64,000 nt of DNA, taken from positions 11,837 through 75,836 of the forward strand of contig CAZLGA010000002.1 of the NCBI GenBank assembly GCA_964559225.1. The letters are read 5' to 3'. The notes beneath the pieces are model-generated. The model was not told the DNA's origin. It was given only the letters and a program-made list of their open reading frames with translations, and searched no databases. Below are positions 426 through 15,384 of the stretch, in pieces; position 1 is the first letter of the stretch, and each line of letters opens with the position of its first letter. The DNA comes from an uncultured bacterium (lineage in GTDB: Bacteria; Hydrothermota; Tepidihabitantia; SM23-42; JAOAFX01). The position numbers were made by a program, and so were the translations under genes.

Positions 426-1778
426 ATGAGGAGATACAGAATCTTGATTGTGGATGATGAAGCAATTGTTAGAGACGCACTGAGTGAATGGCTTGATAAT
501 TTAGGGTATGATACTAAAGCAGTTGATGATGGCGCAAAGGCAGTTGAACAAATTGAGCTGAATGAATGGGACGTTGTACTTGTGGATTTGAAGATGCCGA
601 AGATGGATGGGATTGAGACATTACGCAGGATACATAAAATAAAACCCGATTTGTCGGTAATCATAATAACCGGACATGGGAGTGTTGACAGCGCGGTTAT
701 GGCGATGAAAGAAGGCGCTGCAGATTATGTTATGAAACCTTTCAATCCTGAAGAAATAAATATCATTCTTAAGAAATTGCTTGAACATCAAGAAGTCATT
801 AAAGAGAACATAATTTTACGCAAGGAACTCGAAAAAAGATTCAAATTAGAAGATTTGATAGGGAAGAGCCCGAAAATGCAAAGAATCTTTGACTTGATAA
901 AGACCGTAGCAACAACAAAGTCGACCATTCTGATCAGAGGGGAGAGTGGAACTGGTAAAGAACTTGTTGCAAGGGCAATCCATAATTTGAGTCCTCGCAA
1001 TAAAGGTCCTTTTATCGCAACTGCCTGTGGTGCGATACCTGAGACTCTTCTTGAAGCAGAACTTTTTGGTTATGAAAAAGGTGCATTCACCGGTGCCTTG
1101 AGCCAGCACAAAGGGAGAATAGAGATGGCTGACCAGGGAACGCTTTTTCTTGATGAAATTGGTGACATCAGTCCTAAAACCCAGGTTGATCTTTTAAGAT
1201 TCTTGCAGGAGCGTGAGTTTCGCAGATTAGGTGGAAAAGAGCTTATCAAAGTAGATACGAGGGTGATTGCTGCGACTAACAAGAATCTTGAAGAAATGAT
1301 AAGAAAAGGGACTTTTCGTGAGGATCTGTATTATCGATTGAATGTTATTACGATTGAAATTCCCCCATTACGTGAGAGAAAAGAAGATATACCACTTCTT
1401 ATAGAGCATTTTTTGAGAAAATTTAGCGTTGAAAATAGAAAGGATATTTCAAGAGTCAGTCTTGATGCGATGGAACTATTGATAGCTTATGACTGGCCGG
1501 GTAATGTTCGTGAATTGGAGAATATAATTGAACATGCCGTCGTTGTGTCAAAAGCAAAGGAGATTGGGAAAAAGGACCTGCCAAGGAATTTGACTGATAA
1601 GTTCTCGGTCCCACAACTCGCCACTAAAGATCTCCGTCTTAACGCTGTTGAAAAAGAGCATATCCTGAATGTTCTTAAAATCTGTGATTGGAATATTAAG
1701 AAAGCAGCCCAAGTATTGGACATAAATCGCGTTACATTGTATAATAAAATGGAAAAGTATGGGTTGAAAAAGGGGTAG
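426..1778 (+). CDS. Sigma-54-dependent response regulator of the NtrC/AtoC family (REC + AAA+ sigma-54 activation + Fis-type HTH).
   Basis: N-terminal receiver (ILIVDDE...DLKMP). Walker A GESGTGKE and GAFTGA motif (EKGAFTGAL). C-terminal HTH (KKAAQVLDINRVTLYNKMEKYGL). Confidence 0.93.
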   Translation: MRRYRILIVDDEAIVRDALSEWLDNLGYDTKAVDDGAKAVEQIELNEWDVVLVDLKMPKMDGIETLRRIHKIKPDLSVIIITGHGSVDSAVMAMKEGAADYVMKPFNPEEINIILKKLLEHQEVIKENIILRKELEKRFKLEDLIGKSPKMQRIFDLIKTVATTKSTILIRGESGTGKELVARAIHNLSPRNKGPFIATACGAIPETLLEAELFGYEKGAFTGALSQHKGRIEMADQGTLFLDEIGDISPKTQVDLLRFLQEREFRRLGGKELIKVDTRVIAATNKNLEEMIRKGTFREDLYYRLNVITIEIPPLRERKEDIPLLIEHFLRKFSVENRKDISRVSLDAMELLIAYDWPGNVRELENIIEHAVVVSKAKEIGKKDLPRNLTDKFSVPQLATKDLRLNAVEKEHILNVLKICDWNIKKAAQVLDINRVTLYNKMEKYGLKKG

Positions 1779-1907
1779 TAAAATTCATTCATATTTTAAG
1801 GGCGCGAAGTCCCCTGGCTGAAAATGATTAGAAATCATTTAACCATTCAACCTTACTGGCAATTGTTTTAATTAACATCTGGGATTTGGCAGAGATTTTT
1901 AGATTCC

Positions 1908-1935
1908 TTGACTTCGCAGTCGGTTTTGATATAAT
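1908..1935 (+). promoter_or_regulatory. Putative sigma-70 promoter: TTGACT, 16-nt spacer, TATAAT, 20 nt upstream of the kinase ATG.
   Basis: Sequence ccTTGACTtcgcagtcggttttgaTATAATttg, seen directly. Confidence 0.5.
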
Positions 1936-1954
1936 TTGAAACGGAGATTTCTCA

Positions 1955-3871
1955 ATGGCACTGTTTCAATTTAGCTCTCTAAGAACTAAACTTGCACTAA
2001 GTTACATAGTCGCTGTTGGTTTCGTTGGCATTTTGTGTGCGATGATTGGTATCGTCACCATCAATCAGGGCATTATCAATCAGGCACAGGATCGAGTGAG
2101 CGCGGATTTGAATGCAGCAGGTTATATATATAACCAGATTGCGTTACAAGTTTTGAATACCTGCAGATTTACTGCTTCAAGATTTTTTTTGAAGGAAGCG
2201 TTGGTAAGAAATGACCGGAAAATAATCGCTACTGAATTCCGCCGAATACTAAACACAGAAAAAATCGATTTTCTTTCCGTCATTAATACAAAGTGTATCG
2301 TTGTGGCCCGGGGCTCAACTTCGGACCGATCAAATGATACTGTTAATAATCGGCTAATTGAGCATGCAATAAAAACAAAGACTCCTGTCAGTGCTACAGA
2401 AATATTAACTGCTGAAGAATTATATAAAGAGAATCCTCTGCTAAAACAAAAGGCAGAAATCAGGATTTTGCCGACCACCCGTGCTAAGTTCCAGCGCACA
2501 GGTGTTGAGACTTCAGGATTGGTGATCATCGGTGCTGCGCCAATTCTTGATGAAAATGAAAACGTGATCGGAGTTGTGTATGCCGGTAAGTTGATAAACA
2601 ATAATTTTGAAATTGTCGACCGTATAAAAAATACTGTCTTTATGAGTGAACAGTATAAGGGAAAGGATATTGGAACATCAACCATATTTATGAGAGATTT
2701 AAGGGTTTCCACAAATGTGACAAATATTGATGGCTCAAGGGCAATAGGGACATTAATATCAAAGGAAGTATATGATGCAGTACTTGAAAAAGGTCAGACC
2801 TGGCTCGCTCGGGCATTTGTAGTGAAGGACTGGTACATTACTGCCTATAGACCCATAAAAAATTTTGCCGGGGAGACAATAGGTGTTCTTTATGTTGGAA
2901 TATTGGAAAAAAAATATACTGATATGCGGAATCAGGTCATTTTGTTTTTTGTCGGTCTCACAATCATTGCAATGCTTGCAGTGACTGGATTCTCGTATCT
3001 GCTTTCCGGTGCAATCACAAAATCACTTGGAGAGATTGCTTGTGCAGCACGAGAAATTGGAAAGGGGAATTTCCCAGAGAAGATAAACATCACAACTAAA
3101 GATGAGATAGCAGATTTAGCAAAGGCGTTCCAGTATATGATAGATTCAATAAAGAGACGCGATGAAGAGCTGAAAAGATATGCACAGCAGACCATCGCTG
3201 AAGCAGAAAGACTGGCGATAATTGGACAACTTGCTGCCGGAGTTGCCCACGAGATAAACAATCCTTTGACAGGTATCTTACTGTATTGTGACTTAATGTT
3301 GAAAAATCTTTCTGATGATCACCCTCATAAGAAGCATCTTCTGCGCATAAACAATGAAGCTCAGCGCTGTAAAATGATAGTCAAGGGTCTGCTTGATTAT
3401 GCCAGAGAGAAGAAGCTTGAGATAAAGAAAGCATCAATAAATGAATTAGTTGAATCAACATTGAGCCTGTTGAAAACGCAGCCAATCTTTCTTAATATAA
3501 ACACAAAGATTGAACTTGATGGGAATATCCCTCAAATAAATATGGACCCCGGGCAAATCCAGCAGGTATTGATAAATATTATAATGAATGCGGTTGAGGC
3601 GATGGAAGGAAAAGGCGATTTGATAATAAAAACAGAGTTTTCTGAGGATAAGAGCTTTGTCCTCATATCTATATCTGATACTGGTCCGGGAGTAAAACCC
3701 GAGTTTATGAAGAAAATCTTTGAACCGTTCTTTACAACCAAAGAAGCACGTCAGGGAGTTGGACTTGGACTTTCAATAAGCAAGAGAATAATTGAGGACC
3801 ACAAAGGAACTATTGAGATTGTTAGTGAGCAGGGCAAAGGCGCCACATTTAAGATAAGGTTACCAATTTGA
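1955..3871 (+). CDS. Sensor histidine kinase with a periplasmic Cache-like domain, HAMP, HisKA and HATPase domains.
   Basis: Two TM segments (res ~15-35 and ~325-350) flank a ~290-aa extracytoplasmic domain. HAMP follows. H-box LAAGVAHEINNPL. G-boxes DTGPGV and GVGLGLSISKRI. Confidence 0.9.
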   Translation: MALFQFSSLRTKLALSYIVAVGFVGILCAMIGIVTINQGIINQAQDRVSADLNAAGYIYNQIALQVLNTCRFTASRFFLKEALVRNDRKIIATEFRRILNTEKIDFLSVINTKCIVVARGSTSDRSNDTVNNRLIEHAIKTKTPVSATEILTAEELYKENPLLKQKAEIRILPTTRAKFQRTGVETSGLVIIGAAPILDENENVIGVVYAGKLINNNFEIVDRIKNTVFMSEQYKGKDIGTSTIFMRDLRVSTNVTNIDGSRAIGTLISKEVYDAVLEKGQTWLARAFVVKDWYITAYRPIKNFAGETIGVLYVGILEKKYTDMRNQVILFFVGLTIIAMLAVTGFSYLLSGAITKSLGEIACAAREIGKGNFPEKINITTKDEIADLAKAFQYMIDSIKRRDEELKRYAQQTIAEAERLAIIGQLAAGVAHEINNPLTGILLYCDLMLKNLSDDHPHKKHLLRINNEAQRCKMIVKGLLDYAREKKLEIKKASINELVESTLSLLKTQPIFLNINTKIELDGNIPQINMDPGQIQQVLINIIMNAVEAMEGKGDLIIKTEFSEDKSFVLISISDTGPGVKPEFMKKIFEPFFTTKEARQGVGLGLSISKRIIEDHKGTIEIVSEQGKGATFKIRLPI

Positions 3872-4035
3872 ATACTTCATTCAAAAGTCAATAAATATAT
3901 GTTTAAGAATTAAACAAAAAACCATTGAGATTTGGAAATAAACAATCGTGTTTAAATAATATACAACAAGTCTTTCATTAGATTGCCTGGTTTCACCAAA
4001 AACTCACAAAATTTCATAAAATATTTGTTGTCCTC

Positions 4036-4051
4036 TGGCATGAATTTTGCA
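4036..4051 (+). promoter_or_regulatory. Canonical sigma-54 (-24/-12) promoter TGGCATG-N4-TTGCA. It probably drives the downstream phosphorelay and hdr genes under control of the adjacent NtrC-type activator.
   Basis: ctcTGGCATGaattTTGCAttt matches consensus TGGCACG-N4-TTGCW with one mismatch. GG and GC are spaced correctly. Confidence 0.6.
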
Positions 4052-4064
4052 TTTAGAATTAGTG

Positions 4065-4259
4065 ATGAAATGTCCATACCTTGAAGAGATTGTTGTAAAC
4101 TATTGTGCAGTAGCCCCGGTGAGAAAGATGATTCCCAAAGGAAAGCACAAGGAGCTTTCAAAGTGTGAGCAAGGATATTTTGATTGTCCTGTTTATCAAA
4201 ATTACCTCATGAAGAAGAAACAGGAACGACGTAATGGCGATGGAAGGAAAGAGAAATGA
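4065..4259 (+). CDS. Small Cys4 protein (64 aa from ATG 4065; the ORF track begins at a TTG at 4047). Possible zinc ribbon, translationally coupled (ATGA) to the hybrid kinase.
   Basis: MKCPYLEEIVVNYCAVAPVRKMIPKGKHKELSKCEQGYFDCPVYQ. Cys spacing C-x10-C-x19-C-x6-C. The stop overlaps the next start. The start lies at the predicted sigma-54 TSS, so the mRNA would be near-leaderless. Confidence 0.3.
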   Translation: MKCPYLEEIVVNYCAVAPVRKMIPKGKHKELSKCEQGYFDCPVYQNYLMKKKQERRNGDGRKEK

Positions 4260-5383
4260 AGCCGACGATTCCCAAGATACTGGTGATTGATGATGAACCG
4301 ACCATTTGCGATGCCTGTTATCAAATTCTCGCTGATAGGAACTACTCGGTGGAGGTCGCCAACAATGGTTTAGAGGGACTTAAGAAATTTGAAGATTTTG
4401 ACCCTGATATTGTGTTTATTGACCTGAAGATGCCTGGATTGAGTGGTGTTGATGTGCTAAGGGTAATTGTGGAAAAGAAAACAAATTCAATTCCAATTGT
4501 GATTACTGGTTATGCCTCTATTGAAACTGCAGTGGAATCAATGAAGAATGGTGCGTTTGACTTTCTCCCGAAACCATTCACTGCCGAGGAACTCATTGTG
4601 ATTACTGAACGAGCAATTGCAGAAAAACGGATTCTTGATGAGAAGGAAAAGATTGAAAAAGAGAAGGAGATGATGCGACAGAATTTTATCTCACTCGTTT
4701 CCCATGAATTACGAACTCCGTTGGTTGCGGTAATGCAGTATCTTGAGGTCCTTTTGGGCGGAATGGCAGGTCTGGTAACAGAGCAGCAGAAGAACATTCT
4801 TGATAGGATGAAGATACGGCTGAATGAGCTTCTAAATCTAATCAACCGCTGGTTGAAACTCGCTCGGATGGAAGAACTCAGTGTCAGGGAATCTTTTCAA
4901 AAATTTGAACTTGGGGATATCATTGAAGAGGCAATTGAGCTATTAAAGCCTCTTGCCGATGAAAAGGAGATAAAGATAGAAAAGAAGACAATTAGTGAAT
5001 CAACAAGAGTATTTGGTGACAGGGATTTAATCAAGGAAGTTTTTGTTAACATAATCACGAATAGCATAAAATACAATAAGGAGCAAGGATCGGTTTTCAT
5101 TGATTGCCGGCGAAACGGTAGTTGTGTTGCAGTTGATATTACTGATACAGGAATGGGTATTTCTGAAAACGAACTCAGTAAACTTGGTGAGGAATTTTAC
5201 CGAGTTAAGCGTGAAGGTATTGCCAGCGGTTCAGGACTTGGTCTGGCAATTGTGAAGAAAATACTTGATATTCACAATGGAAGAATTGAAATGAAGAGCA
5301 AACTGAACGAGGGGAGCACATTTTCAGTTTATTTGCCTCTTGCCTTTGATGAGGGTGAGAGCAGAAAAAGGAGTGAGTTATGA
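4256..5383 (+). CDS. Hybrid response regulator/histidine kinase (N-terminal REC, then HisKA + HATPase).
   Basis: REC (ILVIDDEPT...DLKMPGLSG). H-box ISLVSHELRTPLVAV. ATPase boxes DTGMGI and GSGLGLAIVKKI. Confidence 0.9.
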   Translation: MKPTIPKILVIDDEPTICDACYQILADRNYSVEVANNGLEGLKKFEDFDPDIVFIDLKMPGLSGVDVLRVIVEKKTNSIPIVITGYASIETAVESMKNGAFDFLPKPFTAEELIVITERAIAEKRILDEKEKIEKEKEMMRQNFISLVSHELRTPLVAVMQYLEVLLGGMAGLVTEQQKNILDRMKIRLNELLNLINRWLKLARMEELSVRESFQKFELGDIIEEAIELLKPLADEKEIKIEKKTISESTRVFGDRDLIKEVFVNIITNSIKYNKEQGSVFIDCRRNGSCVAVDITDTGMGISENELSKLGEEFYRVKREGIASGSGLGLAIVKKILDIHNGRIEMKSKLNEGSTFSVYLPLAFDEGESRKRSEL

Positions 5384-6171
5384 AAAAATCAAAGATTTTG
5401 TTCATTGATGATGATAAGGACTTTACTGAAGCGAACAAAATAATACTTGATAACGCGGGATATGATGTTATTACTGCTCAGGATGGTAAGACTGGAATGC
5501 AGAAGGCGATGAATGAGAAGCCCGATTTGATTATTCTTGATGTCATTCTGCCCGATATAAATGGGTTCTCATTGTGCCGGGAAATAAAAGAGGATATGAA
5601 CTTACAGGGTATCCCGGTAATACTTTTTACTGCTATTGGTGGAAAACCAGGTGCTTATCCTGAGAATATTGGAATACAGCACAAGGCAGATGCATATATT
5701 GAAAAACCTGCAAGTCCTCAAATTCTCTTAGAGAAAGTTAGTTTTCTCCTTACCACTGCTGCGCCCAGACAAAAAATTGAAGGTGCGAAGCCTAAAATTC
5801 TGCTTGTTGATGATGACCCAGATTTTCTTGAGGCAACAAAGCAAATCTTACAGGCAAATCGTTTTGAGGTGATCACTGCTAAGGATGGTGAAGAAGGTAT
5901 TCAAAAGGCAAAGATTGAGAATCCTGACTTAATATTTCTTGATGTGATTATGCCTGGCAAGGATGGTTATACGGTATGCTATGAACTGAGAAAGAATCCT
6001 CAAACAAGGCCAATTCCCATAATTATGCTTACAGCAATCGGACAGCAATTATCAAAACCCGAGTATGCTGTTGATATTGCGATTGACCACCTCGCAGATG
6101 ATTTTATTGACAAACCAGTTGATGCCCAAACTCTTTTGAAAAAAATAGAGAAGCATCTGTTATTCAGATAG
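5380..6171 (+). CDS. Tandem dual receiver-domain protein (REC-REC) with no output domain.
   Basis: Two receiver domains: ILFIDDDKDF...DVILPDINGF and ILLVDDDPDFLEA...DVIMPGKDGY. The start overlaps the upstream stop. Confidence 0.85.
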   Translation: MKKSKILFIDDDKDFTEANKIILDNAGYDVITAQDGKTGMQKAMNEKPDLIILDVILPDINGFSLCREIKEDMNLQGIPVILFTAIGGKPGAYPENIGIQHKADAYIEKPASPQILLEKVSFLLTTAAPRQKIEGAKPKILLVDDDPDFLEATKQILQANRFEVITAKDGEEGIQKAKIENPDLIFLDVIMPGKDGYTVCYELRKNPQTRPIPIIMLTAIGQQLSKPEYAVDIAIDHLADDFIDKPVDAQTLLKKIEKHLLFR

Positions 6172-6187: not shown

Positions 6188-6682
6188 ATGAGCGATATTG
6201 AACCAAAATTCAAATATGAAGTCGCGCAGGAACCTGGTGGCGAGAAGATAAAACTCTGCTTTGCCTGTGGAATATGTACTGCAAGCTGTGCAGTGAGGGA
6301 AATTGACGAACGCTACAATCCCAGGAAGATAATAAGAATGATTCTTTTAGGTATGAAGAAAAGGGTTCTTGAGAATGAGTTTATTTGGTTGTGTTCGAGT
6401 TGTTACGCCTGCACTGAACGGTGTCCACAGGGTGTTCGGTTTACCGATGTTATGAATGCCATAAAAAATCTTGCAGTAAAACAGGGGTATGTCCCAAGTG
6501 CATTCATTCAGCAGATTGAAATCTTAAGAAATCTGGGAAGGCTCTATGAGATTGATGAATTTGACAATAACAAGAGAACAGCACTCGGGTTACCGAAGGT
6601 CTCAAAGGCTAAAGGATTTACACGGAAGATTATGGAGATAACAGGACTAATCAAGATTGTTAATAGAAAGAATGGACTGTAG
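6188..6682 (+). CDS. hdrC: Heterodisulfide reductase subunit C (4Fe-4S dicluster domain protein).
   Basis: CFACGICTASCAV and CSSCYACTERCPQ motifs. The end of the gene matches HdrC. Confidence 0.88.
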   Translation: MSDIEPKFKYEVAQEPGGEKIKLCFACGICTASCAVREIDERYNPRKIIRMILLGMKKRVLENEFIWLCSSCYACTERCPQGVRFTDVMNAIKNLAVKQGYVPSAFIQQIEILRNLGRLYEIDEFDNNKRTALGLPKVSKAKGFTRKIMEITGLIKIVNRKNGL

Positions 6683-6730: not shown

Positions 6731-7609
6731 ATGAAGTACGCATTTTTCCCTGGTTGTACGGTATTGGGTCGGGGCAGAAACTACGAGATGTCGGCAAGGG
6801 CGATTTCTTCGGTTTTAGGCATTGAGCTTATTGATCTTGATGATTTTGAATGTTGCGGCTTTCCGTTGAAATCGGTTCACTATGATACATATACGCTTAT
6901 GGCAGTAAGGAATATTTTTATTGCCGAAGAAAAGGGGTTTGATATCTGCACATTATGCAGTGCCTGCACTGGCTCACTTACGGAGGTCAACAGACATTTC
7001 AATGAAAATTTTGATGAAAAAGCCAAGGTTGTAGCACAACTGAGGAAAAGTGGAATTGAATTGAGAGTCAGCAAACCAGTAAGAGTAAAACACTTGATAA
7101 AAATTATTTATGAAGAGGTCGGGTTGGAAAAATTAGAAAAATCAATAAAGAAAAAGTTATCAAATCTTGCTCTTGCACCACATTACGGTTGTCATTACCT
7201 AAAACCTTCAGACATTTATGAGCCATCAGAAGATCCTGAGAATCCGAAATCCCTGGATGAATTGATCAGTGTTACTGGTGCACGAGTCGTCAATTATTCA
7301 GAGAAATTGAGATGTTGTGGGGCAGGTATCCTTGCGGTTAATGAAGATACCGCATATTTAATGACTCAACCGAAATTGAGAGAACTGACAAGAAATTCAG
7401 CTGATGCAATGGTTCTGATGTGTCCATTTTGCAGTGTGATGTATGATGATAATCAGAAGAAAATTGAACAGAAGTTTCAGGAACAGTACAATCTTCCCGT
7501 TCTCTATTACCCACAAGTGCTTGGGCTGGCAGTGGGATTAGAACCGAAAGCTCTTGGATTACAGATGAACAGGGTATCAACGCGGACACTGTTGGAGAAA
7601 ATAAAATGA
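6731..7609 (+). CDS. hdrB: Heterodisulfide reductase subunit B (two CCG cysteine-rich domains).
   Basis: CCG motifs ECCGFPL and LRCCGAG, flanked by CxxC-type segments (CTLCSACTG; CPFCSVM). Confidence 0.88.
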   Translation: MKYAFFPGCTVLGRGRNYEMSARAISSVLGIELIDLDDFECCGFPLKSVHYDTYTLMAVRNIFIAEEKGFDICTLCSACTGSLTEVNRHFNENFDEKAKVVAQLRKSGIELRVSKPVRVKHLIKIIYEEVGLEKLEKSIKKKLSNLALAPHYGCHYLKPSDIYEPSEDPENPKSLDELISVTGARVVNYSEKLRCCGAGILAVNEDTAYLMTQPKLRELTRNSADAMVLMCPFCSVMYDDNQKKIEQKFQEQYNLPVLYYPQVLGLAVGLEPKALGLQMNRVSTRTLLEKIK

Positions 7610-7675: not shown

Positions 7676-10600
7676 ATGAATACATCTGATCAAAAAGTTG
7701 GTGCTGTCTTGGTCATTGGTGGTGGTATAGGGGGGGTCCAGGCATCTCTGGACCTTGCCGATTCTGGATTCAAAGTGTATTTGCTTGAAAAGTCCCCAAG
7801 CATTGGTGGTGTGATGGCACAACTTGATAAAACATTCCCAACCAATGATTGTTCAATGTGTATATTAGCGCCAAAACTTGTCAGTGCGGGCAGACATCCG
7901 AATATTGAATTAATAACCTATGCTGAACTTGAAAGTATCCAGGGCGAACCTGGTGAGTTCACGGTTCGTATTCTAAGAAAATCGCCATTTGTTGATTGGG
8001 ATAAATGTAATGGGTGTGGTGTATGCTGGGGAAAGTGTCCAATAAATACTCATTCTGATTTTGAATGTGGCCTGGGAAAGAGAAAGGCGATATATGTTCC
8101 GTTCCCACAGGCAGTCCCGAATAAAGCAGTTATTGATAAGGAACACTGCACATATTTCGTAAAGGGTGGTAAATGTCGGGTGTGTCAGATTCTTTGTCCA
8201 GCAAAGGCAGTAGATTTCAATATGCCTGATAAGATGATTGATATAAGTGTAGGTAGCATAATAATAAGTAGTGGCTTAAAAACTTTTGATCCTCATTTGA
8301 AAACAGTTTTTGGTTATGGTAAATATGCAAATGTAATAAAATCTATTGAGCTGGAAAGAATCTTGAACGCCTCGGGTCCGTTCCAGGGGCATCTTGTAAG
8401 ACCTTCAGACCGAAAGGAACCACAAAAACTGGCATTTATTCAATGTGTTGGTTCCAGGGATATAAAATCAGGTAATGCATATTGCTCATCAGTTTGCTGT
8501 GTATATGCAATAAAAGAGGCAATTCTAATGAAGGAGCATAATCGGTCACTTGATTGCACGATATTTTATATGGATATGAGAACATTTGGAAAGGGGTTTG
8601 AAGCATACTACAAAAGGGCAAAAGAAAAATATGGAATAAAATTTAAGCGGGCAATGGTTGGAGAAATCACTGAGTTGTCCGAGAGCAAGAATTTATTGGT
8701 CAAATATGAAGATGAGGACGGCAATCTCAATAGAGAAAATTTTGATATGGTTATTCTGTCTGTTGGACTGAGACCCGATGAAAACGCAAAAAAACTTGCT
8801 GAAATTTTGAATTTAGAATTATCCGAATTCAATTTTGTAAAATCTATTCCTTTTTCGCCGATTGAGACAGCCCAACCAGGTATATTTGTATGCGGAACCG
8901 CTTCGTCACCCAAAGATATTCCAGAAACAGTTACCGAAGCGAGCGCTGCGGCGCAGAAGGCGATTGAATTGATAAAAGAAGAAAGGCATAAACTTACGAG
9001 AAAGGTTGAATATCCTGGCGAGATTGATGTTTCGGGTGAACAACCCCGTATAGGTGTCTTTGTCTGTCATTGTGGCATAAATATTGCTGGAACAGTAAAG
9101 ATAATGGAAGTTGTTGAATATGCAAAAACATTACCGAATGTTGTATATGCAGAAAATAATCTTTATTCCTGTTCTGATGATTCCCAGCAACATATAAAAG
9201 AGATGGTTGAAAAACATAAACTGAACAGGGTTGTAGTGGCTGCATGCACACCAAGAACTCACGAACCTTTATTCCAGGAGACGATAAGAGAAAAAGGATT
9301 GAATAAATTTTTATTAGAATTTACAAATATACGAGACCAGTGCTCCTGGGTTCATTCGCAGGAACCAGAACAAGCCACTGAAAAGGCAAAAGACCTTGTT
9401 AGAATGGCGTGCGCGAGGGCAAGCCATTTGGAAGCGTTGCCAACGATTACTATTCCGGTTACACAGAGTGGGCTTATTATCGGCGGTGGTATCAGTGGAA
9501 TGAATGCAGCACTGAGCCTTGCAAATCAGGGATACAAGGTTTATCTTGTGGAAAAACAGGGAGAGCTTGGTGGAAATGCCCGGCATCTAATCTACACAAT
9601 TGATGGCAGGAATATAAAAGAATATTTGGATTCACTGATACAAAAAGTGGAGACACATCCTGATATCACGGTTCATAAGAACAGCAATATTGAATCAGTA
9701 AACGGATATATTGGTAATTTTCAGACGAGAGTAAAGAAGCAAGAAGCAGGAAATAAGAAGCAGGAAATAATTGAGATTGAACACGGCGTGATAATCATTG
9801 CAACCGGGGCTACAGAATACAAACCAGTTGAATATCATTATGGTAAGGATCCGAGAATAATTACTCAGAGAGAACTTGAAAAATTTCTATTTGACCATCA
9901 AACTATCACACCATCAGACTATAAGACGGTTGTCATGATTCAATGCGTTGGTTCACGCGATAACGAAAGAAAATATTGCAGTCGCATCTGTTGTTCTGAG
10001 GCGATAAAAAATTCCTTGCTTATTAAACAGAAGAATCCTGAAACCGAAGCCATTATATTTTATAAAGATATGAGGACGTATGGACTTAATGAGATATTCT
10101 ATCAAAAGGCAAGGGATGCTGGTGTTGTATTCATAAGATATGATGACGAGTTTAAACCTGAGATTTCTTCTCATAATGGTAAGCTTGTTGTTAAGGCAAG
10201 AGAGCCGATACTGAATGAGGAAATTGAATTACCAGCAGATCTCGTTGTTCTGTCTGCAGGAACTGTTCCGAATGAATCAAACAGGGAGATCGCCCAGTTG
10301 CTAAAAGTGCCTTTGAATGAAGATGGATTTTTTCTTGAGGCGCATATGAAACTTCGTCCGGTTGACTTTGCTACAGATGGAATATTTATTTGTGGTATGG
10401 CGCATTCACCAAAGACAATTGATGAGTCCATTGTTCAGGCTCAGGCAGCAGCATCAAGGGCAGGGATAGTTCTTTCAAAAGACACAATTGAAGTCCTGCC
10501 AGCAGTTGCCAAAGTGGATGCGGAAAAATGCATTGGTTGTGGAATTTGCGAGACGTTATGTGCTTATCAGGCACACGAGTTAAAAAAGACTGATAAGGGT

Positions 10601-10729
10601 TATCGTTCAGAAGTCATTTCCGCTTATTGTAAGGGCTGTGGTAGTTGTGCAGCGTCCTGCCCCCAGCATGCGATACTGATGAAACATTTCACAAATGACC
10701 AGATAATGGCAATGGTGGAAGCAGTATGA
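7676..10729 (+). CDS. hdrA: Large HdrA-like flavoprotein (1017 aa) with two FAD/NAD(P)-type Rossmann modules and ferredoxin-type clusters. The architecture is HdrL-like.
   Basis: N-terminal VIGGGIGGVQASLDLA. HdrA hallmark Cys clusters (CNGCGVCWGKCP; CRVCQILCP; CVGSRD...YCSSVCC). A second dinucleotide fold IIGGGISGMNAALSLA at ~res 600 with its own CVGSRD...YCSRICC segment. C-terminal 2x[4Fe-4S] (CIGCGICETLC...CKGCGSCAASCPQ). Confidence 0.88.
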   Translation: MNTSDQKVGAVLVIGGGIGGVQASLDLADSGFKVYLLEKSPSIGGVMAQLDKTFPTNDCSMCILAPKLVSAGRHPNIELITYAELESIQGEPGEFTVRILRKSPFVDWDKCNGCGVCWGKCPINTHSDFECGLGKRKAIYVPFPQAVPNKAVIDKEHCTYFVKGGKCRVCQILCPAKAVDFNMPDKMIDISVGSIIISSGLKTFDPHLKTVFGYGKYANVIKSIELERILNASGPFQGHLVRPSDRKEPQKLAFIQCVGSRDIKSGNAYCSSVCCVYAIKEAILMKEHNRSLDCTIFYMDMRTFGKGFEAYYKRAKEKYGIKFKRAMVGEITELSESKNLLVKYEDEDGNLNRENFDMVILSVGLRPDENAKKLAEILNLELSEFNFVKSIPFSPIETAQPGIFVCGTASSPKDIPETVTEASAAAQKAIELIKEERHKLTRKVEYPGEIDVSGEQPRIGVFVCHCGINIAGTVKIMEVVEYAKTLPNVVYAENNLYSCSDDSQQHIKEMVEKHKLNRVVVAACTPRTHEPLFQETIREKGLNKFLLEFTNIRDQCSWVHSQEPEQATEKAKDLVRMACARASHLEALPTITIPVTQSGLIIGGGISGMNAALSLANQGYKVYLVEKQGELGGNARHLIYTIDGRNIKEYLDSLIQKVETHPDITVHKNSNIESVNGYIGNFQTRVKKQEAGNKKQEIIEIEHGVIIIATGATEYKPVEYHYGKDPRIITQRELEKFLFDHQTITPSDYKTVVMIQCVGSRDNERKYCSRICCSEAIKNSLLIKQKNPETEAIIFYKDMRTYGLNEIFYQKARDAGVVFIRYDDEFKPEISSHNGKLVVKAREPILNEEIELPADLVVLSAGTVPNESNREIAQLLKVPLNEDGFFLEAHMKLRPVDFATDGIFICGMAHSPKTIDESIVQAQAAASRAGIVLSKDTIEVLPAVAKVDAEKCIGCGICETLCAYQAHELKKTDKGYRSEVISAYCKGCGSCAASCPQHAILMKHFTNDQIMAMVEAV

Positions 10730-10934
10730 ATACTACGACGCAGGATTGCATCGCTCGCAGGATCGTCCTGACAGGGAAGTCAAGACTCGCAGGATTATCC
10801 GCCACGAAGATTGGCGGATTTGCAGGAGATGCTTTTGCAGGTCGCAGGCGATACTGCAAATTGAATCACACTGCGAATCCCGATTTTATTATTGAGATAG
10901 ATGCTCCGAATAGTGCATCTTTTTAGGAGTTTCA

Positions 10935-11693
10935 ATGTCTGATTTTCAACCACGGATTCTTGGGTTTTTATGCAACTGGTGTTCTTATGCAGGTGCCGAC
11001 CTTGCGGGTGTATCAAGAATTCAGTATCGCCCGAATATCAGAGTGATAAGAGTGATGTGTTCGGGTAGGGTTGATCCAGTTTTCATAGTTAATGCTTTTT
11101 TGAGAAAAATTGATGGTGTTATGGTACTGGGTTGTCATTTTGGCGATTGCCATTATCTGAACGGCAATTATAATGCTGAAAAAAGGATTGTTGCTGCACA
11201 AGAGCTTTTGGCTTTTACCGAAATTGCAAAGGATAGACTATACTTAGATTGGGTATCTGCAGCAGAAGGCGAAAGGTTTGCAAATCTCGCAAACACATTC
11301 GTAAACAAAATTAGGGACATCGGTCCGATAACTATCTCAGAGCAGACCGAAGCAATGCTTTTATCGGTCAGAGATGTGCTCCAGAGTGAACTATTTAGAC
11401 ACCTGACTGGTGTGGAGTACCAGATAACCGAGAGAGAGAATGCCTATGGTGAGAAGATTCCGGCTGAGGATTTCAAGAAGAAGTTAGGTGGAATACTTTA
11501 CCAAGAGTATATTAGGGCACGCATATGTCGCTTACTGAAGAGCAACTATTATACAGTACCTGAAATTGCTCGAATTCTCAATATCGCGCCGGACCTTGCA
11601 TTTGAAAGTGTCTGTTCATTGCAGGAAAAAGGTAGTGTTTCAATGATAGAAATAAGAAATGAATATCCGATATATGGAGCTAACAAATCATAA
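10935..11693 (+). CDS. mvhD: MvhD-like protein (methyl-viologen-reducing hydrogenase delta-subunit family) fused to a ~120-aa C-terminal extension that has the look of a winged helix-turn-helix.
   Basis: N-terminal ~130 aa LGFLCNWCSYAGADLAGVSRIQYRPNIRVIRVMCSGRVDP...GCHFGDCHY is collinear with the MvhD ORF at 14980-15384. The C-terminal tail ...YTVPEIARILNIAPDLAFESVCSLQEKGSVSMIEI resembles a wHTH recognition helix plus wing. Confidence 0.8.
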   Translation: MSDFQPRILGFLCNWCSYAGADLAGVSRIQYRPNIRVIRVMCSGRVDPVFIVNAFLRKIDGVMVLGCHFGDCHYLNGNYNAEKRIVAAQELLAFTEIAKDRLYLDWVSAAEGERFANLANTFVNKIRDIGPITISEQTEAMLLSVRDVLQSELFRHLTGVEYQITERENAYGEKIPAEDFKKKLGGILYQEYIRARICRLLKSNYYTVPEIARILNIAPDLAFESVCSLQEKGSVSMIEIRNEYPIYGANKS

Positions 11694-11836
11694 TCCAAGA
11701 GTTAATAAAGATTTATGGGTTGAGGTTGGGATGCGGCTCTTTTTGAACCACTTAACCAATTACCATTTAACCAAAATATACCAGTTTATCAGCCCCAATC
11801 AAGCAACTATTCCCGGACATTTTGAAGGATACATAT

Positions 11837-14800
11837 ATGAATAAGATTGGTGCAGTCATGGTCGTGGGTGGCGGTATCGGCGGTATCCAGGCATCTCTTG
11901 ACCTGGCGAATTCTGGGTTCAAAGTCTATTTACTGGAGTCCGCCCCGGCAATAGGCGGAATAATGGCAATGCTTGATAAGACATTTCCGACAAATGATTG
12001 TTCAATGTGCATAATGGCACCTAAACTTGTTGAATGTGCACGCCATCTCAATATAAAAATTATTCCCGACGCAAGAATTGAAAGGCTTAGCGGTGGAGCG
12101 GGAAATTTTATTGTCAGGGTGCGGAAGAAAGCAAGATATGTAGATACTACAAAGTGCACAGGCTGTGGTGAATGCCGGAAACACTGTCCGATTGAAATCG
12201 CTGATAGATTTAATCAGGGATTGACAAAGAGAAAGAGTATTTATATTGACTATCCACAGGCTGTCCCCGCAGTATACGCGATTGATAAGAACAATTGTCT
12301 TGGATGTGGGGTATGTGAAAAGATATGTCTTGCTGGTGCAGTTAAATATAAAGATAGTGACACAATAGAGGACCTGAATGTTGGTTCAATAATTCTTTCT
12401 TCTGGTTCAGACGCATTTTACCCGAAGGGTTATACAAATTTTGGTTATGGTATTTATAAGAATGTTGTTACAAGCCTTGAATTTGAGCGTATTCTATCTG
12501 CTTCAGGCCCGTTTTCCGGGCATTTGCTCAGACCTTATGAAGGAAAGGCGCCAAAGAGGATTGCCTTTATTCAGTGTGTTGGTTCAAGAGACCCGCAAGC
12601 AGGGAAGGGATATTGTTCTTCAGTTTGCTGCACCTATGCGATAAAAGAAGCAATAATTGCAAAAGAGCACTCAAAGAATGGACTTGAAGCTACGATATTC
12701 TTTATGGATATCAGGACATTTGGTAAGGGCTTCGAAGATTATTATAATCGTGCCAAGAATGAATACGGTGTAAGATTTGTTCGTGCTGGTGTATCCAAAA
12801 TAGAAGAGGTTCCTGAGACGAATAACCTCATAGTGCATTACGAAGATGAAGAAGGCAAGATTATAGAAGAAGAATTTGACATGGTGATACTCTCTGTTGG
12901 TCTTGTCCCGAAGCAGGATACTGCTCAAATGGCAAGATGCTTGCGGCTTAAGCTGAATACTTATGATTTCTGTAAGACCTCTGAATTTATTCCAGTTGAC
13001 ACGATACATGACGGAATATTCGTTTGTGGTGCATTTGCGGGTCCCAAAGACATTCCTGAAACTGTTGCCCAGGCTTCTGCTGCTGCAGGTAGGGCAATGG
13101 CTTTGTTGTCTGAATCCCGGGGTAGTTTAATTGTCAGGAAAGAATATCCTCAGGAATTAGATGTATTAAATGAGAAGCCACGCATAGGAGTTTTTGTTTG
13201 CCACTGCGGAATAAATATTGGTGGGTACGTAAATGTGCCTGAGGTTGTAGAATACACAAAACAATTGCCAGATGTAGTATTTGCAGATAACAATCTTTAT
13301 ACCTGTTCCCAGGATACGCAGAAGAGAATAATTGAAAAAATCAGAGAGCATAACCTGAACCGGATTGTTGTTGCTTCGTGCACTCCGAGAACCCATGAGC
13401 CACTTTTCAGAGAGACCATTCGTGAGGCAGGTTTGAACCAGTATCTATTTGAGATGGCAAATATCCGCGACCAATGCAGTTGGATTCATATGAATGAACC
13501 ACAACCTGCAACTCAAAAAGCAAAGGATTTGGTGAAGATGGCGGTCTCAAAGGCAAGGTTACTTATGCCTTTGAAAAGGGTTGAAATTGATGTAATTCAG
13601 AAAGCGCTTGTTGTTGGTGGTGGTATTGCAGGTATGAGTTCTGCACTTCTGCTTGCGGAACAGGGATTTGAAGTTGTTCTTGTTGAGAAGGAAAAAGAAC
13701 TTGGTGGTAATCTACGACATATACACCGGACATTAGAAGACAGAGATGTACAGGATTTTTTGAAGAAGACGGTTGAAGCAGTAAGCAAAAGTAAATTGAT
13801 AAAGGTGTACACAAATGCTCGGATTGAAGATATAACAGGCTTTGTGGGGAATTACAAAACACGTATTAAAATTGGGGGGTTGGAGGCGGAAAGTGAGAAA
13901 CTGGAACAAAAGCAAGTGGAAATTGAACATGGGGTAGTCATTGTTGCAACCGGGGCTCAAGAATACAAACCCACAGAATATCTCTATGGTAAGGACCGAC
14001 GGATAATCACCCAGAAAGAACTTGAAAGAGTTATTTTTGACGATCAGACCATCAGACTGTCAAACTATGAGACTGTTGTCATGATTCAATGCGTCGGTTC
14101 GCGCGATAACGAAAGAAAATATTGCAGTCGTATATGCTGTTCTCAGGCAATAAAGAATGCCTTAAATCTTCTTGAAATAAACCCTGATACGAACATCTAT
14201 ATTATTTACAAAGATATCCGTACCTATGGATTCAAAGAAGAATTATACCGCGAGGCAAGAGGAAAAGGTATTGTCTTTATTAGATATGATGATACAAGAA
14301 AGCCAGAACTAAAAAACGAAAATGGAAAATTTAAAATAAAGGTCTTTGAACCGATTTTGAAAGAAGATTTGATAATAGATGCTGACTTGATTGTTCTTTC
14401 TTCTGGTATTATTGCAGATCCGAACAATAAAACCCTCGCAAAAATGCTAAAAGTTCCTTTGAATAGTGATGGTTTCTTCCTTGAAGCCCATGTTAAGCTA
14501 AGACCGGTTGACTTTGCAACCGAAGGTGTATTCGTAGCAGGAATGGCGCATAGTCCGATGACTATCGCTGAATCTATTACACAGGGACAGGCAGCAGCAG
14601 CACGTGCTACAACTATTTTAGCAAACAAAAAATATTATGCGGAAGCAACTGTTTCTTCAGTTAATGAAGAACTATGCGCAGGTTGCGGTATGTGTGGGGC
14701 ATTGTGTCCTTACGAGGCAATAATATATAAAGAAAAAGATGGCAAGAAAATTTCCAGTGTTAATGAGGCATTGTGTAAGGGCTGTGGGACCTGCGTTGCT

Positions 14801-14875
14801 GCTTGTCCTTCTGGTGCAATAGTTCAGTATGGTTTTACAAAAAAACAGATAATCGCAATGGTGGAAGCAATATGA
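11837..14875 (+). CDS. hdrA: Second large HdrA-like flavoprotein, a paralogue of 7676-10729. The ORF track starts at a TTG at 11822; ATG 11837 has a better RBS.
   Basis: Collinear with the first copy: VVGGGIGGIQASLDLA; CTGCGECRKHCP; CVGSRD; VVGGGIAGMSSALLLA; C-terminal CAGCGMCGALCPY...CKGCGTCVAACPS. About 75% identical over the first ~75 aa by eye. Confidence 0.88.
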   Translation: MNKIGAVMVVGGGIGGIQASLDLANSGFKVYLLESAPAIGGIMAMLDKTFPTNDCSMCIMAPKLVECARHLNIKIIPDARIERLSGGAGNFIVRVRKKARYVDTTKCTGCGECRKHCPIEIADRFNQGLTKRKSIYIDYPQAVPAVYAIDKNNCLGCGVCEKICLAGAVKYKDSDTIEDLNVGSIILSSGSDAFYPKGYTNFGYGIYKNVVTSLEFERILSASGPFSGHLLRPYEGKAPKRIAFIQCVGSRDPQAGKGYCSSVCCTYAIKEAIIAKEHSKNGLEATIFFMDIRTFGKGFEDYYNRAKNEYGVRFVRAGVSKIEEVPETNNLIVHYEDEEGKIIEEEFDMVILSVGLVPKQDTAQMARCLRLKLNTYDFCKTSEFIPVDTIHDGIFVCGAFAGPKDIPETVAQASAAAGRAMALLSESRGSLIVRKEYPQELDVLNEKPRIGVFVCHCGINIGGYVNVPEVVEYTKQLPDVVFADNNLYTCSQDTQKRIIEKIREHNLNRIVVASCTPRTHEPLFRETIREAGLNQYLFEMANIRDQCSWIHMNEPQPATQKAKDLVKMAVSKARLLMPLKRVEIDVIQKALVVGGGIAGMSSALLLAEQGFEVVLVEKEKELGGNLRHIHRTLEDRDVQDFLKKTVEAVSKSKLIKVYTNARIEDITGFVGNYKTRIKIGGLEAESEKLEQKQVEIEHGVVIVATGAQEYKPTEYLYGKDRRIITQKELERVIFDDQTIRLSNYETVVMIQCVGSRDNERKYCSRICCSQAIKNALNLLEINPDTNIYIIYKDIRTYGFKEELYREARGKGIVFIRYDDTRKPELKNENGKFKIKVFEPILKEDLIIDADLIVLSSGIIADPNNKTLAKMLKVPLNSDGFFLEAHVKLRPVDFATEGVFVAGMAHSPMTIAESITQGQAAAARATTILANKKYYAEATVSSVNEELCAGCGMCGALCPYEAIIYKEKDGKKISSVNEALCKGCGTCVAACPSGAIVQYGFTKKQIIAMVEAI

Positions 14876-14979: not shown

Positions 14980-15384
14980 TTGATGTCTAATTTCAAACCC
15001 AAAATAATCGTCTTCTGCTGCAACTGGTGTTCTTATGCGGGTGCTGACCTTGCAGGGGTATCAAGGCTACAAATGAACCCCAATTTTCGGGTAATAAGGA
15101 CTATGTGTTCAGGAAGGATAGAACCAGAGTTTATATTAACTGCATTCACAAAAGGGGTAGATGGTGTATTAATCACTGGATGCCATCCTGGTGACTGTCA
15201 TTATATTTCAGGTAATTATAAAACCTTGAGGCGGTATAATGCATTAAAATTACTCTTAAAAGAAATGGGTATTGATGATAGACGCCTTAAATTAGAATGG
15301 ATTTCTGCAGGGGAGGGGGCAAGATTTCAGGAGGTTATAAATAACTTCATAAAAACTATTTCCGAACTTGGACCCAAAGATTAA
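14980..15384 (+). CDS. mvhD: MvhD-like protein (134 aa, no C-terminal extension).
   Basis: IVFCCNWCSYAGADLAGVSRLQ...RVIRTMCSGRIEP...GCHPGDCHY. Confidence 0.85.
   Translation: MMSNFKPKIIVFCCNWCSYAGADLAGVSRLQMNPNFRVIRTMCSGRIEPEFILTAFTKGVDGVLITGCHPGDCHYISGNYKTLRRYNALKLLLKEMGIDDRRLKLEWISAGEGARFQEVINNFIKTISELGPKD

Follow-up and report, generated by a model that had tools for sequence, protein, structure and literature searches.

The long MvhD encoded at positions 10935–11693 of the window (the whole stretch of uncultured-bacterium DNA that was analysed, 64 kb) is, as judged from its sequence, a member of the BamF-type family. BamF is the MvhD-homologous adaptor in the class II (tungsten) benzoyl-CoA reductase BamBCDEFGHI of Geobacter metallireducens (bioRxiv 10.64898/2026.04.10.717634). 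[quoted passage not shown] The linker and the wHTH, hereafter the tail, probably form a docking arm for a neighbouring redox module, a reading to which a probability of about 0.65 is given.

The Long MvhD Gene and Its Core

The open reading frame has an AGGAG Shine-Dalgarno sequence 6 nt ahead of its ATG start, comprises 252 codons and ends with a TAA stop. Its parts are as follows:

10935–11693, + strand: long MvhD gene, BamF-like adaptor (252-aa ORF, homologues, AlphaFold2 model)
10956–11324, + strand: MvhD/FlpD [2Fe-2S] domain, aa 8–130 (PF02662, PDB chains, Foldseek, invariant columns)
11325–11462, + strand: helical linker, aa 131–176, with R155 and N169-x-Y171-x-E173 (NxYGE) (alignments, high-pLDDT helices)
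11463–11681, + strand: winged helix-turn-helix, aa 177–249

It is established for the MvhD family that the core binds HdrA and relays single electrons to the bifurcating FAD. The whole PF02662 profile (positions 1–123 of 123) matches aa 8–130 of the long MvhD (E = 1.3e-50; 171 bits, cut-off 22.3), which bears out the first-pass annotation, where the first ~130 aa had been read as a canonical MvhD. The core also matches the PDB chains 5odc_D, 7bkb_F and 8rvu_F, the MvhD subunits of the Mvh-Hdr, Fdh-Hdr and Elp-Hdr complexes, with E-values of 1e-61 to 1e-65, and Foldseek agrees. Alignment of 36 full-length homologues of the long MvhD revealed no variation at C13, C16, C42, C67, H68 and C72 and almost none at D71; Cys16, His68 and Asp71 are the MvhD residues highlighted in the Mvh-Hdr-Fmd structure paper (PMC13580544). 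Binding of a [2Fe-2S] cluster and electron transfer to HdrA by the long MvhD are predicted from the MvhD family.

In the long MvhDs of Desulfobacterales (L016, L020, L021, L025 and L028; e.g., L021:10001–10744), an in-frame TGA is found exactly at the invariant Cys67 (G-U-HFGDCHY). It probably encodes selenocysteine at a presumed cluster-ligand position; the neighbouring long HdrA ORFs are shortened as well, probably for the same reason. The selenocysteine of G. metallireducens BamF is located elsewhere, at Sec19, the equivalent of which in the long MvhD of the window is a cysteine (C16).

A further MvhD gene is found downstream:

14980–15384, + strand: short canonical MvhD paralogue, 134 aa, without tail (PF02662, E = 1.3e-54)

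The core of the long MvhD is co-linear with this unfused paralogue, as had been noted before, with 55.7% identity over 131 aa. The LCNWCS motif, which lacks the CC of canonical MvhDs, was considered as a hallmark of long MvhDs and rejected, as it is the commonest form in tail-less MvhDs too (26 out of 45). In the neighbour-joining tree of MvhD cores, which is poorly resolved, the tail-bearing proteins do not group as one clean clade (best F = 0.69), and the BamF-type proteins form a single clade nested among them.

Fold and Distribution of the Tail

AlphaFold2 modelled the whole long MvhD, together with an alignment of its homologues, with a pLDDT of 88.4 and a pTM of 0.88, the tail exceeding 90; modelled by itself, the tail reached 92.8. 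In the model, three linker helices (136–149, 152–159 and 161–165) are followed by a loop with the NxYGE motif, and the wHTH is composed of a long H1 (177–202), H2 (208–215), H3 (219–231) and a beta-hairpin wing (235–249). The pTM of 0.88 indicates that the tail is packed rigidly with the MvhD core. According to the homologue alignments, the tail has conserved positions of its own, namely R155, N169-x-Y171-x-E173 ('NVYGEKI'), I197 and P245.

The structures nearest to the tail are those of DNA-binding MarR/ArsR regulators, e.g., CzrA (1r1u), PH1932 (1uly/2cwe) and 4nb5. The HTH matches of the tail of the long MvhD are below the Pfam cut-offs (PF21476, 17.7 bits vs 33; TrmB, 12.6 vs 25.6), and HTH_5 and PF0610-like_N match the tails of 15 out of 26 relatives at E < 0.01. 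As modelled, the fold is that of a genuine wHTH and not a non-DNA-binding one, and the ~120 extra residues, described as wHTH-like in the first-pass annotation, are accounted for by the helical linker and the wHTH (pLDDT 88–93). The wHTH fold on its own leaves undecided whether the tail binds DNA or docks.

A word-indexed protein search with the long MvhD returned more than 120 proteins of 250–270 aa at 97–100% query coverage, sharing 60–84% identity in the case of candidate division WOR-3 and 44–51% in the case of Asgard archaea/Bathyarchaeota. Full-length homologues are known from WOR-3, Dehalococcoidia, Desulfobacterales, Asgard archaea, Bathyarchaeia, Thermoplasmata and ANME-1; the same extension is thus widespread across phyla and not unique to this assembly. 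These homologues also bear on the question of whether a missed stop or a frameshift has fused mvhD to an unrelated downstream ORF in the assembly. The same continuous ORF architecture is found in hundreds of independent assemblies from many phyla, the tail carries conserved motifs, and its fold is predicted with confidence. Such an artefact is already refuted by the homologues and the conservation, and its probability is negligible.

When the tail alone was used as the query, the word-indexed search gave only 8 matches, and an exhaustive profile search gave 582 cluster representatives, 239 of them at E ≤ 1e-10. The profile matches are ~250-aa proteins, fragments, longer natural fusions or unrelated proteins of tandem wHTH repeats. 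In all of the 10 longer matches that were checked, an FlpD domain immediately precedes the tail. One natural fusion (P0133) joins an HdrA half, FlpD and the tail in a single chain, and another (P0241) continues from an HdrA half, FlpD and the tail into Fer4 and an NfnB-like flavoprotein module; the domain order of P0241 places the tail physically between two redox modules. No free-standing tail was found by either the profile or the word-indexed search, the apparent short matches being truncated gene calls: P0121 and P0123, considered as standalone tails, were rejected because both start inside the MvhD domain.

Gene Neighbourhood and the Conserved Cassette

In the window, the genes are arranged in the order hdrC, hdrB, long hdrA, long mvhD, long hdrA and short mvhD. 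In addition to the two MvhD genes, the following were mapped:

6188–6682, + strand: HdrC-like 4Fe-4S subunit, 164 aa (Fer4_8, Fer4_17)
6731–7609, + strand: HdrB-like CCG-domain subunit, 292 aa (PF02754 CCG, two copies)
7676–10729, + strand: long HdrA no. 1, 1017 aa, BamE-like fused HdrA dimer with C59-x-x-C62 and K280 (Pfam, identity to BamE-position proteins)
11822–14875, + strand: long HdrA no. 2, 1017 aa, BamE-like (Pfam; conserved place directly downstream of the tail-bearing MvhD)

The two long HdrAs are 57% identical. The four-gene core of the cassette (long HdrA, long MvhD, long HdrA, short MvhD) recurs in WOR-3 (L084, L085) and Hodarchaeota (L001), as well as in an archaeal lineage (L002, L003), where a [NiFe] hydrogenase follows downstream; among the matches listed, it is also present in Dehalococcoidia, Desulfobacterales, Bathyarchaeia, Thermodesulfobacteriota and Methanomassiliicoccus-like genomes. 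The first HdrA of the cassette is split in some cases (~431 + 555 aa) and in others carries an additional NfnB/GltD-like module (~1475 aa). The adjoining donor module varies as well, being FrhB-like, a [NiFe] hydrogenase, an Elp/Asr-like trio or absent, and none is found in the window.

A long HdrA of ~1475 aa is encoded upstream of the MvhD gene at L084:5272–9693, and also in L006, L010, L024, L047, L065 and L075. Pfam identifies the NfnB/GltD-like module (Fer4_20, Pyr_redox) in the L084 protein, which points to NAD(P)H as a putative substrate of this form of the protein. The MvhD that follows the ~1475-aa HdrA was scored as tail-less in L065 and L075.

Several further observations were made around the cassette. 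An HdrC-like fragment at 3–311 (−), which shares 58% identity with the HdrC encoded at 6188, is cut off by the left end of the window; it is oriented divergently to the gene of the sigma-54 activator, suggesting that another hdr locus adjoins. Between long hdrA no. 1 and long mvhD, a gap of 205 bp (10730–10934) contains direct repeats CGCAGGAT(T/C) at 10739, 10756 and 10788 and further repeats TTTGCAGG at 10819 and 10834, the longer repeat units recurring at a spacing of 32–33 nt. As RNA, the gap folds somewhat more stably than its shuffles (z = −2.7); it is not conserved in the WOR-3 relative L085, and Rfam gave no match within 10600–12000. A 66-aa ORF (10726–10926) has no Pfam match, is uncalled in relatives and is probably not a gene.

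Relationship to BamF and Class II Benzoyl-CoA Reductase

According to a cryo-EM preprint of April 2026, BamF is more than 100 aa longer than other MvhD adaptors and its wHTH interfaces with BamI, while BamE is a fused HdrA dimer (bioRxiv 10.64898/2026.04.10.717634); this one preprint is the source for the BamF–BamI contact. As stand-ins for the G. metallireducens BamF sequence, the BamF-position proteins from four bam-type clusters of other genomes were used. These loci (L036, L059, L063 and L066), found among the matches listed of the species-representative genome scan, follow the exact bamBCDEFGHI order by gene mapping. By Pfam, the L036 cluster encodes AOR, a CCG/Fer4 protein, a 1036-aa HdrA, a 255-aa FlpD+HTH_5 protein, NuoE-like and NuoF-like proteins, and a Fer2_4/Fer4_7 protein.

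The long MvhD aligns end to end with the BamF-position proteins of all four loci, with 38–40% identity and the wHTH in register. Both 1017-aa HdrAs that flank it share 44–50% identity with the BamE-position proteins and retain, with the numbering unchanged, Cys59-x-x-Cys62 and Lys280 as landmarks of BamE. Thus, based on the colinear homology to BamF-position proteins and the BamE-like neighbours, the long MvhD is assigned to the same family as BamF. In both long HdrAs, a Lys (K778, at CCSEAIK) is present in the second TrxR-like half at the place that Lys280 takes in the first. In BamE, the second FAD has been described as non-bifurcating, with Gln (bioRxiv 10.64898/2026.04.10.717634).

The kinship does not extend to the reductase itself. 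By tblastn, no match to BamG, BamH or BamI was found in the window, where a second long HdrA lies downstream of long mvhD instead, and AOR/BamB and BamC have no match anywhere in the 64 kb. On this gene content, the long MvhD is not part of a benzoyl-CoA reductase. The literature search revealed no MvhD homologue joined to a winged helix beyond the class II benzoyl-CoA reductase preprint (bioRxiv 10.64898/2026.04.10.717634); a wHTH-bearing adaptor of the MvhD type has been known only for BamF, and since 2026. Likewise, no account of a BamF-like adaptor in a non-BCR cassette of long HdrA, long MvhD, long HdrA and short MvhD was found.

Tail Presence and the Downstream Gene

Every MvhD gene in a sample of 82 loci, taken from the best 80 matches listed of the species-representative genome scan, was sorted according to whether it has a tail and which gene comes next downstream on the same strand. 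Among the 36 tail-bearing MvhDs in these loci, HdrA is next in 23 cases and BamG/NuoE in three; in the fourth bam-type locus (L059), an unlabelled ORF lies between the tail-bearing MvhD and BamH. A [NiFe] small-subunit or Elp-FrhB gene never follows directly (0 out of 36). The next gene of the 53 tail-less MvhDs is Elp-FrhB in 15 cases, the [NiFe] small subunit in 12, HdrC in six and HdrA in only three. In the same loci, long HdrAs are paired with short MvhDs where a hydrogenase or an Elp-type donor follows. This pairing in front of classical donors implies that a fused HdrA as such can do without the tail, which tracks the next attached module. The correlation with the downstream gene could come in part from tandem duplication and not from physical contact.

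Possible Regulatory Function of the Tail

In the first-pass annotation, the long MvhD was proposed as a redox-state-reporting transcription factor for the Hdr module; the wHTH would bind an operator, and hdr transcription would be switched by the [2Fe-2S] redox state or by release of the protein from the Hdr complex. By fold, the tail is a true wHTH, and among both structures and profiles it comes nearest to DNA-binding regulators of the ArsR/MarR type; a non-DNA-binding fold was not predicted for it, and in some family members the wHTH is basic, with a net charge of up to +8. Across the family, the charge of the wHTH lies between −4 and +8 (median +1) and is not decisive. In the protein of the window, the wHTH has a net charge of 0 and the recognition helix −2, conserved basic surface residues are missing, and the exposed recognition-helix positions are variable in the family alignment. 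As the chain stops 3–8 residues past the wing, it has no counterpart of the C-terminal helix through which ArsR/MarR regulators dimerise. The three gaps around the long mvhD gene contain no inverted repeats, and only weak AT-rich ones, at 3882–3965 and 4172–4207, are located upstream of the operon. In addition, the tail occurs only as a fusion to MvhD in the matches checked, its position in the operon is fixed across Bacteria and Archaea despite unrelated promoter types, and the homologous wHTH of BamF is reported as a subunit interface (bioRxiv 10.64898/2026.04.10.717634). The proposal has no positive support; a DNA-binding role of the tail is called for by no observation, and a transcription factor is quite improbable.

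Conventional regulators adjoin the operon, which also argues against a regulatory tail:

426–3871, + strand: NtrC-type sigma-54 activator (426–1778) and Cache/HAMP histidine kinase (1955–3871) (Pfam)
4256–6171, + strand: hybrid histidine kinase (4256–5383) and double-receiver protein (5380–6171), immediately upstream of hdrC and co-oriented (Pfam)
4036–4051, + strand: candidate sigma-54 −24/−12-like element TGGCATGAATTTTGCA, TGGCAT-N5-TTGCA (pattern search, 1 mismatch)

In the WOR-3 relatives L084 and L085, too, the cassette is flanked by the same kinase/receiver genes, and L085 also has a sigma-54 activator nearby. From their gene content, the sigma-54 activator and the two-component system are candidates for the transcriptional control of the operon. 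The candidate element is intergenic and on the right strand, lying after the Cache kinase gene and before the hybrid-kinase/receiver/hdr string, downstream of the NtrC-type activator, although matches of this kind are no more numerous in the window than expected by chance. The promoter/terminator scan likewise gave counts at chance level, and no terminator inside the gene string.

In L002 (1510–1848, −), as well as in L003 and L012, a divergent operon of hdrC, hdrB, split hdrA and mvhD lies beside the type-A cassette and ends in a free-standing HTH_5 (ArsR-like) gene of 112–115 aa. The 112-aa gene of L002 was considered as a split form of the tail and rejected, because BLASTP revealed no similarity between the two. 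In view of this lack of similarity to the MvhD tail, the free-standing gene may encode a true regulator of these operons.

Proposed Role of the Tail

HdrA-type electron bifurcation has a central part in how anaerobes conserve energy. In the proposed mechanism, the core of the long MvhD would bind long HdrA no. 1, and its [2Fe-2S] cluster would relay single electrons to the bifurcating FAD of that HdrA. The linker and the wHTH would act as a rigid protein–protein arm that docks a further redox module, and not as a reader of DNA. In class II benzoyl-CoA reductase, the BamF tail would, correspondingly, hold BamI of the NADH/ferredoxin module against the HdrA-type core. Since the cassette lacks BamGHI and has a second BamE-like HdrA next instead, the tail is most likely to tether the second HdrA/MvhD unit; it would link long HdrA no. 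2, along with the short MvhD, to the first HdrA/MvhD/HdrBC unit and give an asymmetric supercomplex, in which two HdrA-type flavin modules share one HdrBC. The chance that long HdrA no. 2 is the specific partner is put at somewhat less than even. We infer both the docking and this partner; the BamF–BamI contact is taken from the preprint. Docking had been named as the alternative role in the first-pass annotation, and it is now favoured by the homology to BamF, the occurrence of the tail only with MvhD and its tracking of the downstream module.

The arm might instead be a structural element with another partner, contacting its own long HdrA no. 1 or HdrBC, or dimerising protomers, and thereby positioning the mobile MvhD arm. 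The high pTM, suggestive of a rigid unit with the MvhD core, would fit such a role, as would the joining of an HdrA half, MvhD and the tail in P0133, and Hdr complexes are dimers with mobile MvhD-bearing arms (bioRxiv 10.64898/2026.04.10.717634; PMC13580544). The linker motif of the type-A group differs from that of BamF, so the partner surface may differ too. However, the long HdrAs paired with short MvhDs before hydrogenase or Elp donors need no tail, tail presence follows the kind of module encoded downstream, and P0241 has a flavoprotein module fused behind its tail. A partner of this kind is thus considered unlikely, and docking of the neighbouring redox module is preferred.

A more far-reaching and rather doubtful extension of the docking reading is that the cassette, HdrBC and the variable donor form a supercomplex, in which two HdrA-type bifurcating modules operate in series or in parallel and are coupled by the wHTH tail. 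If true, this would be a second mode of coupling bifurcation modules, beside the pairing of HydABC-type and HdrA-type modules in class II benzoyl-CoA reductase, and one with a wide distribution among Asgard archaea, Bathyarchaeia, WOR-3, Dehalococcoidia and Desulfobacterales.

Most HdrA/MvhD paralogues of uncultured lineages, including Asgard archaea, are without assigned partners. The BamF-like MvhD as a mark of the double-HdrA cassette leads to a testable prediction of subunit architecture, i.e., of which modules couple, and the presence or absence of the tail may serve as a sequence signature that separates MvhDs bridging to another multi-cofactor redox module from those bridging to a classical donor. 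It also guards against annotating such tails as ArsR-type regulators, as has happened to at least one fragment (P0123). The proposal overturns nothing; it would turn many unassigned Hdr paralogues of uncultured anaerobes into a testable architecture.

Comparison with Known Systems

With the canonical MvhD/VhuD/ElpC proteins (PF02662; 5odc_D, 7bkb_F, 8rvu_F), the long MvhD shares the core in full, including the conserved Cys/His/Asp residues, and in both cases an HdrA gene adjoins. Canonical MvhDs are 130–145 aa long, have no tail, and bridge HdrA to a hydrogenase, a formate dehydrogenase or an Elp donor. In contrast, tail-bearing genes never precede those donor genes in the sampled loci (matches listed). 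Unlike the ArsR/SmtB and MarR regulators (HTH_5, HTH_20, MarR), the tail is not a free-standing dimer, has no helix after the wing and is located behind MvhD; conserved basic DNA-contact residues are absent, and the protein of the window stays under the Pfam cut-offs.

Fused or tandem HdrAs of more than 1000 aa, comprising two HdrA units and occurring several per cluster with MvhD, have been described for ANME, Asgard archaea and Moorella (HdrA3/4 in PMC9012536; PMC11237513). Similarly, the cassette has multiple long two-unit HdrAs and MvhD, whereas a wHTH-tailed MvhD or the order long HdrA, long MvhD, long HdrA, short MvhD does not appear in those two papers.

In the class II benzoyl-CoA reductase cluster, BamD is fused, whereas HdrB and HdrC are separate genes here. 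Unlike bamF, the long mvhD gene is followed by a second long HdrA and a short MvhD and not by BamGHI, and the linker of its product has the conserved R155 and the NxYGE motif specific to the type-A group. Like BamF, the long MvhD belongs to the ~255-aa length class, combines an MvhD core with an extension of more than 100 aa that ends in a wHTH, and has a gene that directly follows the one for a BamE-type fused HdrA dimer (7676–10729).
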